Shown here in pieces: positions 16,558 to 16,867 of a stretch of DNA of 26,612 nucleotides. Source of the stretch: a virus (Duplodnaviria > Heunggongvirae > Uroviricota > Caudoviricetes). Numbering within the stretch: the first letter of the stretch is position 1; the number at the start of each line of letters is the position of its first letter. The notes under the pieces were generated by a model. The model was not told the origin of the DNA. It saw nothing but the letters and a program-made list of their open reading frames with translations, and ran no database searches. Position numbers and translations under genes: made by a program. The stretch lies in IMG/VR virus record IMGVR_UViG_2541047923_000008, one strand, 5' to 3'.

Positions 16558-16632
16558 TGGAGCGGGCAGCGGGAATCGAACCCGCATCATCAGCTTGGAA
16601 GGCTGAGGTAATAGCCATTATACGATGCCCGC
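16558..16632 (-). tRNA. tRNA-Gly (anticodon UCC)
   Basis: Reverse complement GCGGGCATCGTATAATGGCTATTACCTCAGCCTTCCAAGCTGATGATGCGGGTTCGATTCCCGCTGCCCGCTCCA folds as a cloverleaf with a 7-bp acceptor stem, anticodon loop CUUCCAA, GTTCGATTC T-loop and encoded CCA. Confidence 0.75.
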
Positions 16633-16635
16633 ATA

Positions 16636-16711
16636 TGGTGCCGACTACCGGAATCGAACTGGTGACCTACTGATTACAAGTCAGTTGCTCTACCTACTGA
16701 GCTAAGTCGGC
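16636..16711 (-). tRNA. tRNA-Thr (anticodon UGU)
   Basis: Reverse complement GCCGACTTAGCTCAGTAGGTAGAGCAACTGACTTGTAATCAGTAGGTCACCAGTTCGATTCCGGTAGTCGGCACCA; perfect acceptor, D and anticodon stems, loop CUUGUAA, one A-C mismatch in the T-stem. Confidence 0.65.
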
Positions 16712-16713
16712 AC

Positions 16714-16790
16714 TGGACCGCCACCGGGGACTCGAACCTCGCACACTCAACTTAAAGGGTTGACGCTCTTTCCTGATGAGCTAGTGGCGG
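16714..16790 (-). tRNA. tRNA-like gene, possibly tRNA-Lys (UUU) or a degenerate tRNA pseudogene
   Basis: Reverse complement CCGCCACTAGCTCATCAGGAAAGAGCGTCAACCCTTTAAGTTGAGTGTGCGAGGTTCGAGTCCCCGGTGGCGGTCCA; good acceptor, D and anticodon stems, but C at position 33 and one T-stem mismatch. Confidence 0.4.
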
Positions 16791-16791
16791 C

Positions 16792-16867
16792 TGGTGGCCC
16801 TTGCTGGATTTGAACCAGCGACCTGGCGATTATGAGTCGCTCGCTCTCACCACTGAGCTAAAGGGCC
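16792..16867 (-). tRNA. tRNA with anticodon CAU (Ile2/lysidine-type or Met), ileZ-like as in lambdoid Stx phages
   Basis: Reverse complement GGCCCTTTAGCTCAGTGGTGAGAGCGAGCGACTCATAATCGCCAGGTCGCTGGTTCAAATCCAGCAAGGGCCACCA; resembles E. coli ileX-type tRNA as recalled; anticodon loop CUCAUAA. Confidence 0.7.

Follow-up and report, generated by a model that had tools for sequence, protein, structure and literature searches.

What are four tightly packed tRNA genes doing between the antiterminator and holin genes of a lambdoid prophage of Escherichia coli, and why does one of them combine a Lys anticodon with a body that resembles a phage Arg tRNA? We examined this question in a stretch of 26,612 nt from the Caudoviricetes record IMGVR_UViG_2541047923_000008 of the IMG/VR database, hereafter the window, for which a preliminary description had noted four such genes. 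The array is ordinary, widely annotated lambdoid-prophage cargo and a compositional relative of the ileZ-argN-argO cassette of Shiga toxin (Stx) phages. We consider it probable that it is a self-contained tRNA cassette, or 'moron', in which the tRNAs for Ile2, Thr and Gly supply minor decoders and the fourth, with anticodon UUU, is a dispensable extra decoder of Lys codons. This fourth gene, a phage Arg-type tRNA whose anticodon has changed to one for Lys codons, is the sole unusual member and is moderately interesting.

A tRNA cassette in the late region

ARAGORN found four tRNA genes in the window and no others, all of them between 16558 and 16867 on the minus strand, in agreement with matches to the Rfam tRNA family RF00005 (E-values 1e-6 to 1e-14). 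In order of transcription these are:

16792-16867, minus strand: tRNA of the Ile2 type, anticodon CAU, corresponding to ileZ (ARAGORN; Rfam 72.5 bits; tRNA-Ile according to the Prokaryotic Genome Annotation Pipeline, PGAP)
16714-16790, minus strand: tRNA of the argN lineage, anticodon UUU, nominally Lys (ARAGORN; Rfam 44.4 bits; tRNA-Lys according to PGAP)
16636-16711, minus strand: tRNA-Thr(UGU), exact copy of host thrU (76/76 to thrU of Escherichia coli K-12; Rfam 73.8 bits)
16558-16632, minus strand: tRNA-Gly(UCC), exact copy of host glyT (75/75 to K-12 glyT; Rfam 64.9 bits)

All four encode CCA and combine a score above the curated RF00005 gathering threshold of 29 bits with a complete ARAGORN cloverleaf, as expected of tRNA genes. 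Minimum free energy (MFE) folding of the single tRNAs was uninformative, as even the host-identical thrU copy gave no cloverleaf in silico. Because the genes lie on the minus strand, the order of transcription is the reverse of that in which they had previously been listed. The spacers that separate them are 1, 2 and 3 nt long (16791, 16712-16713 and 16633-16635), so that no host flanking sequence is left where the thrU and glyT copies meet the adjacent genes.

The CAU gene could in principle encode an elongator tRNA-Met or an Ile2-type tRNA. It is identical to ileZ of the Stx2c phage 2851 (76/76), shares 68/76 positions with host ileX and only 54/78 with the elongator gene metT, and we therefore rejected the Met alternative; the identities and the PGAP annotation as tRNA-Ile both place it on an Ile2-type body, that of the lysidine-type group ileX, ileY and ileZ, in which C34 would be modified to lysidine and the tRNA charged with Ile. 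In E. coli, Ile2 tRNAs are marked by the acceptor-stem determinants C4-G69 and C5-G68, which are recognised by TilS. Both pairs are present in the acceptor stem of the CAU tRNA (GGCCCUU/AAGGGCC).

The array lies in the late operon and is flanked by two genes that share its orientation, which is that of the late genes:

17062-17757, minus strand: Q antiterminator gene, 231 aa, directly upstream of the cassette (PF06323 Phage_antiter_Q, E 8.6e-92)
16051-16266, minus strand: gene for a class II (P21-type) holin, first of the downstream lysis genes (PF04971, E 1.4e-35)

Further upstream on the same strand lie the genes for RusA and a DUF968 protein. Downstream, the holin gene is followed by genes for a DUF1327/YdfR protein, an IS110-family transposase (on the opposite strand), a lysozyme and an Rz-like protein. 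Lambda-like head genes and early genes occupy the remainder of the window. A prophage of E. coli SMS-3-5 matches the 601 bp around the array with 100% identity, and in it PGAP annotates tRNA-Ile, tRNA-Lys, tRNA-Thr and tRNA-Gly between the holin gene and a gene for 'bacteriophage antitermination protein Q'. No open reading frame (ORF) of at least 50 aa was found on the late (minus) strand in the interval between Q and the holin gene, and there is therefore no toxin gene in it; the only ORFs that touch the interval are two of 68-69 aa on the plus strand that run into Q (16949-17158 and 16986-17192). The preliminary description was thus correct in reporting four closely packed tRNA genes between a Q-like gene and a holin gene with no toxin ORF, and ARAGORN, which it had proposed as a check, recovered all four.

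Since phages commonly integrate at tRNA genes, and since the Thr and Gly copies are identical to host thrU and glyT, we considered whether the array might be a set of host chromosomal tRNA genes or a remnant of an attachment site beside the prophage rather than phage cargo. This is highly improbable. The array is inside the prophage, in the Q-holin interval and on the late strand, and deposited phage genome records have it in the same location, whereas the related SMS-3-5 prophage integrates at a tRNA-Ser gene about 15 kb away. Moreover, thrU and glyT are separated in the host by tyrU plus 116 nt and are followed by thrT-tufB, and none of tyrU, thrT or tufB is present here. The prophage context and the absence of these three genes rule out a host tRNA operon or attachment-site remnant. 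The absence of tyrU and of the host flanks also indicates that the capture of thrU and glyT was exactly tRNA-sized.

The following elements were predicted in and around the array:

17050-17078, minus strand: late-promoter-like site TTGCAA-17-TATATT that overlaps the end of Q (promoter scan)
16968-16998, minus strand: predicted strong intrinsic terminator resembling tR', CCCGC-loop-GCGGG followed by TTTTTTGTG (read from the minus-strand sequence)
16877-16905, minus strand: predicted sigma-70-type promoter of the cassette, TTGCAA, 17 bp, TATTAT (promoter scan)
16352-16557, minus strand: structured trailer that forms three long hairpins and accompanies the Thr-Gly pair (fold, conservation)
16325-16354, minus strand: predicted intrinsic terminator that closes the cassette, GCCCGC-TTTT-GCGGGT followed by TTTTTCTTTTC (terminator scan and fold)

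The late-promoter-like site corresponds in position to the 'putative late promoter' annotated in phage VT2-Sakai. The palindrome at 16968-16998, which the terminator scan had placed on the plus strand, would terminate transcription about 75 nt past this site. The region 16968-17078 (minus strand) resembles the short pR'-to-tR' transcript of lambdoid phages, and 16973-17046 gives full-length but sub-threshold Rfam matches to the prophage small RNAs (sRNAs) isrK (22.7 bits) and isrJ (24.5 bits). From the cassette promoter, a G+C-rich discriminator, CCTGCGCCC, extends to the first tRNA. Homology with Stx phage 2851, in which the Q/pR' region is unrelated, starts at the -35 hexamer TTGCAA or 1 bp upstream of it and runs into ileZ, and the pattern TTGxxx-17-TATTAT is kept in 84 IMG/VR loci with the four-gene array despite several unrelated upstream sequences. 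In the VT2-Sakai record the equivalent site is a 'putative tRNA promoter' and terminators are marked before and after the tRNAs; an equivalent of the closing terminator follows argO in this phage and is also found in PPompW. By prediction and conservation, the cargo is therefore flanked by its own promoter and terminator in the manner of a phage moron.

The claim that the array occupies the place of the Stx-phage cassette was borne out by comparison with known cassette families, of which the Stx phages carry Ile2-Arg(UCG)-Arg(UCU), PPompW carries Ile2-Lys-Arg(UCU) and phi467 carries Thr-Gly downstream of stx. As in 933W, VT2-Sakai and 2851, the genes lie downstream of Q, pR' and tR' and upstream of the lysis genes, on the late strand and behind a promoter of their own, of which the -10 hexamer and discriminator are homologous. 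The first gene is the identical ileZ, the second is a homologue of argN (65/77) and a terminator follows the array. Unlike in these phages, the second gene has anticodon UUU with C33 rather than UCG with U33, and in place of argO (UCU) as third gene and the stxAB operon after it, there are copies of host thrU and glyT and no stx operon. The same two tRNAs form the pair in phi467, which agrees with the window at about 99% of positions in the trailer, terminator and holin leader. There, however, the pair is downstream of stxAB, between stxB and the holin gene, and ARAGORN detected no ileZ- or argN-type tRNA in a surrounding 3.3-kb stretch that reaches from the lysis genes into stxA (locus L128), whereas in the window the Thr-Gly pair abuts the ileZ/argN-type module at a 2-nt junction. 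Judged by these matches, the window joins an 'ileZ plus argN-type' module to a second module of the Thr-Gly pair with its trailer and terminator, with nothing in the place of stx, which supports the position originally suggested. It illustrates how lambdoid phages build tRNA sets from interchangeable modules. A search of the open-access literature for ileZ, argN and argO found nothing relevant. In phage 2851, the sRNA STnc100 (158.5 bits) is located downstream of stx2B (locus L002, 792-1003, minus strand).

The cassette is common. At least 80% of the 601-bp region could be matched in 463 of the 5,426 complete E. coli genomes searched. In a sample of 120 IMG/VR contigs that contain an argN-type 3' motif, the array was Ile2-Lys-Thr-Gly in 93, Ile2-Lys-Arg(UCU) in 12 and Ile2-Arg(UCG)-Arg(UCU) in six.

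Codon usage and the proposed function

The four tRNAs had been proposed to read A/U-ending codons that are rare in the host and possibly enriched in AT-rich morons. We compared the genes of the window with 48 K-12 genes from one 50-kb region. ATA accounted for 22% of Ile codons in the window and 5% in the host (odds ratio (OR) 5.8, p 9e-18), ACA for 22% and 10% of Thr codons (OR 2.6, p 3e-8) and GGA for 22% and 9% of Gly codons (OR 2.9, p 3e-11). The enrichment was strongest in an AT-rich gene for an FRG-domain protein (37% GC; ATA 44%, ACA 50%, GGA 33%), which uses ATA, ACA and AGA more heavily than any other gene of the window. The proposal thus holds for three of the four tRNAs, which match the excess of AUA, ACA and GGA codons in the prophage. 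It fails for AAA, which is not rare in the host and makes up 69% of Lys codons in the window against 79% in the host sample (OR 0.59, p 9e-4). Because AAA is not enriched and the host is already rich in lysT-type genes, with five in one K-12 locus alone, codon supply does not explain the UUU tRNA.

On codon usage, the supply of minor tRNAs for AUA, ACA and GGA is the best-supported function of the cassette. In a lysogen, the cassette would be transcribed at a basal level from its own promoter. After induction, Q-modified RNA polymerase from the late promoter would transcribe it much more strongly, reading through the tR'-like terminator, the cassette and the cassette terminator into the lysis genes. 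RNase P would cut each 5' end, and 3' exonucleases would trim the 1-3-nt spacers to the encoded CCA. The Ile2, Thr(UGU) and Gly(UCC) tRNAs would add to the scarce host decoders of the AUA, ACA and GGA codons overused by the prophage genes, and the UUU tRNA would most likely act as a weakly constrained, dispensable extra Lys decoder on an Arg-type body.

Phage T4 offers a classical parallel. Its tightly packed set of tRNAs (Arg-UCU, Gln, Gly-UCC, Ile-CAU, Leu, Pro, Ser and Thr-UGU) is classically interpreted as codon supplementation, and shares with the window the recurrent minor isoacceptors Ile2-CAU, Thr-UGU and Gly-UCC, with Arg-UCU present in sister cassettes. T4 is a lytic phage and its tRNAs are diverged phage genes, whereas the window belongs to a temperate phage and has two tRNA genes copied exactly from the host. 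T4 is not known to carry a Lys tRNA.

Several points weigh against the proposed cassette and its function. First, AGA, AGG and CGA are enriched to an equal extent (OR 2.5-6.1), yet the cassette is without an Arg tRNA; since both Arg tRNAs have been lost despite this enrichment, codon demand does not fully predict the tRNAs carried. Second, acquired DNA that is richer in AT is generally enriched in A-ending codons, and the host reference is confined to those 48 genes of a single region. Third, the promoter, the terminators and the read-through by Q are all predictions. Finally, sequence conservation is uneven across the array. Diversity over all 84 loci was unusable, as a subset has unrelated flanks, and was recalculated for the 40 loci in which both flanks are homologous. 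Nucleotide diversity (pi) was 0.0007 for the Ile2 gene, 0.0063 for Gly, 0.0097 for Thr and 0.017 for the UUU gene (search motif excluded), compared with 0.007-0.034 in the non-coding flanks. The Thr, Gly and UUU genes are thus not clearly more conserved than non-coding sequence, and only ileZ is clearly under strong constraint.

Origin and possible roles of the UUU tRNA

The UUU tRNA matches Stx-phage argN(UCG) at 65 of 77 positions and host lysT at 47 of 79, and on these identities is a homologue of argN that is unrelated to lysT. Apart from its UUU anticodon it lacks what defines a canonical bacterial tRNA-Lys(UUU), namely U33, the discriminator A73 and descent from a Lys tRNA. Its cloverleaf shows C33, C1-G72, U73 and a T-stem mismatch, A51.C63, the first and last of which had been noted in the preliminary description. 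The anticodon loop reads C32 C33 U34 U35 U36 A37 A38, so that three of the 12 differences from argN fall within these 7 nt and convert CUUCGAA to CCUUUAA (U33C, C35U, G36U). The acceptor and anticodon stems, in which every pair is Watson-Crick, depart from those of argN through compensatory substitutions. Since argN of phage 2851 has the same A.C mismatch in its T-stem, this is a trait of the lineage and not a sign of decay in the window copy.

We aligned ten distinct members of the lineage, which besides UUU variants comprise three argN genes with anticodon UCG, one IMG/VR version with UCU and a member from a Yersinia phage. In this alignment 96.7% of cells in the cloverleaf are paired, against 29-56% with slid partners, and three pairs have changed on both sides, which argues that the body has been maintained as a tRNA across the change of anticodon. 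An intermediate with U33 and UUU on an argN body was sought and not found, nearly all matches being unrelated giant-virus tRNAs. The search did turn up the UCU version, in a single IMG/VR prophage contig (locus L139, 2133-2209, minus strand), which has a fully paired T-stem and could be an intermediate between UCG and UUU. The member from Yersinia phage YeP2 (locus L132, 1501-1802), also located between Q and the holin gene, has the loop CAUUGCC (UUG anticodon, A33, C37) and G73, scores below the Rfam threshold and is followed by an Ile2-like tRNA and a tRNA-Gly(UCC); it provides a second example of an argN body with an unusual anticodon loop. In Stx2c phages (locus L134, about 600-666) a UUU-type body has lost the whole anticodon arm and is a clear pseudogene.

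The UUU gene alone was detected in 798 of the 5,426 complete E. coli genomes (about 15%), with a copy at least 99% identical in only 279 of these. Among the 30 matches listed, copies at least 98.7% identical were annotated as tRNA-Lys, and copies at 96-97%, including a form shorter by 1 nt, had no tRNA annotation. In the IMG/VR sample, common variants carry U8C plus other changes (17/113 copies) or a 1-nt deletion in the D-stem (14/113). The gene is widespread, labelled simply 'tRNA-Lys' and unexplained by codon demand. We considered two further explanations for it.

The UUU gene might be a decaying relic, a copy of argN that lost its Arg identity through U33C, C35U and G36U and is now carried between selected neighbours. 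We regard this as possible but less likely than a dispensable Lys decoder. The gene has the lowest Rfam score of the four, has C33 at a position that is nearly universally U, a T-stem mismatch and U73 in place of the A73 of lysT, and is as diverse as the flanks in the 40 loci. The frequency of the U8C and D-stem variants and the existence of a relic without an anticodon arm point in the same direction, as do the scores of the PPompW, YeP2 and Stx2c-relic versions, all of them under the Rfam gathering threshold. On the other hand, the window allele (44.4 bits) scores like argN of phage 2851 (43.0 bits), although below argN of VT2-Sakai (54.8 bits), and has in common with the former the mismatch that might otherwise suggest decay. 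Its paired stems with compensatory changes also argue against decay, as do the conservation of the loop CCUUUAA in 110 of 113 copies and of C33 in all 113. The window allele is moreover the commonest (66/113 copies) and occurs in deposited phage genome records. The evidence on the earlier suggestion that the gene may be a pseudogene is divided: its argN-like score, shared mismatch and compensated stems argue against it, and its flank-level diversity and the mostly variant copies, seemingly un-annotated among the matches listed, argue for it.

A second explanation takes its cue from the anticodon, since the UUU tRNA would read the codons served by the one host tRNA species that several anti-phage nucleases attack. 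Cleavage by AriB of the PARIS system requires U36-A-A-U-C|A41 and U16, is lost with the substitution U39A and is reduced by A41C or U16C (PMC12409363). Phage T5 escapes PARIS by means of its own tRNA variants (PMC11464382, PMC12409363). P2-Old, the classic anti-lambda system, is lethal through its attack on tRNA-ThrU, which it cuts at the CNG motifs that occupy positions 28-30 and 40-42 of the anticodon stem (PMC12445682). A tRNA with a UUU anticodon on an Arg-type body could be a Lys decoder unseen by the tRNA nucleases of the host or of rival phages, and the additional thrU would enlarge the pool of the other main target. The UUU tRNA reads U36-A-A-G-U-U41, has C16 and A17 and lacks CNG at 28-30 and 40-42. 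It thus has the anticodon of the nuclease-targeted host tRNA with an altered recognition and cleavage site, by sequence comparison only, and would be expected to escape both AriB and P2-Old. As it is without the published recognition features of either nuclease, a role in counter-defence is conceivable; the failure of codon supply to account for it, the concentration of three of its 12 differences from argN in the anticodon loop and the UCU form on the same body are compatible with such a role.

We nevertheless think this role unlikely, and less likely than decay. The Thr copy is identical to host thrU and would be as cleavable as the host tRNA, the differences from lysT follow from Arg-type ancestry and need not have been selected, and the gene is no more conserved than the non-coding flanks. 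The low number of carriers with a copy at least 99% identical (279/798), the un-annotated 96-97% copies among the 30 matches listed and the arm-deleted relic of Stx2c phages also speak against it, and C33 and U73 may mean a poor decoder or a poor substrate of lysyl-tRNA synthetase. Like the tRNA-Lys(UUU) of T5, the UUU tRNA is phage-borne and differs from host tRNA-Lys at positions 39, 41 and 16, which AriB needs (PMC11464382, PMC12409363). The T5 gene, however, is a diverged Lys tRNA for which resistance and rescue were proven experimentally, whereas that of the window, known from its sequence, is of Arg-type descent with C33 and U73. More speculative still, and in our view improbable, is the idea that the argN body serves as a chassis for anticodon switching, carrying UCG in Stx phages, UCU in a single IMG/VR prophage contig, UUU beside C33 in the window and a UUG-like loop in the Yersinia phage, and that UUU with C33 was selected as a Lys decoder proof against PARIS, PrrC and P2-Old. 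If so, this would be late-operon counter-defence in temperate lambdoid phages, analogous to the tRNA-Lys of T5. Were the tRNA functional and nuclease-proof, counter-defence by viral tRNAs would extend from large lytic phages to common temperate ones, including relatives of Stx phages; were it not, the gene would be a clean natural case of an anticodon change followed by decay. A dispensable extra Lys decoder remains the reading that we prefer.

The cassette trailer and accessory genes of the prophage

The trailer downstream of the Thr-Gly pair is strongly structured. The 233 nt at 16325-16557, comprising the trailer and the terminator hairpin, fold with an MFE of -80.9 kcal/mol (z = -5.47), a value that 200 shuffled sequences all failed to reach. 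In Stx phage phi467 the 206-nt trailer itself is conserved to about 99%. No Rfam family matched 16352-16557 at the gathering or E-value threshold. The sRNAs PasA and PasC have been reported to adjoin prophage holin genes, and we compared their published probe sequences with the trailer; neither matched at up to three mismatches and both candidates were rejected. The region 16325-16557 may be an uncharacterised sRNA or a processing element.

The lysis cassette is split by an insertion of about 2 kb between the DUF1327/YdfR and lysozyme genes, which contains the IS110-family transposase gene (PF01548 and PF02371; 14349-15482, plus strand). In the related PPompW prophages, ISEc20, of the same insertion sequence family, directly follows the tRNA array. 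The FRG-domain protein mentioned above (444 aa; 21232-22566, plus strand) is encoded in the orientation opposite to that of its neighbours and matches the PADLOC candidate defence family PDC-S15 (E 1e-98). Other accessory genes inside the prophage include a sok antitoxin RNA (111.7 bits; 20432-20606, minus strand) next to a hok-type ORF region (20282-20494), a cspA-type thermoregulator 5' untranslated region (107.5 bits) ahead of a cold-shock protein gene, and a gene of the GnsA/GnsB family. The cold-shock gene with its 5' untranslated region and the GnsA/GnsB-family gene account for 12077-12493, 12123-12338 and 11275-11541, all on the minus strand.

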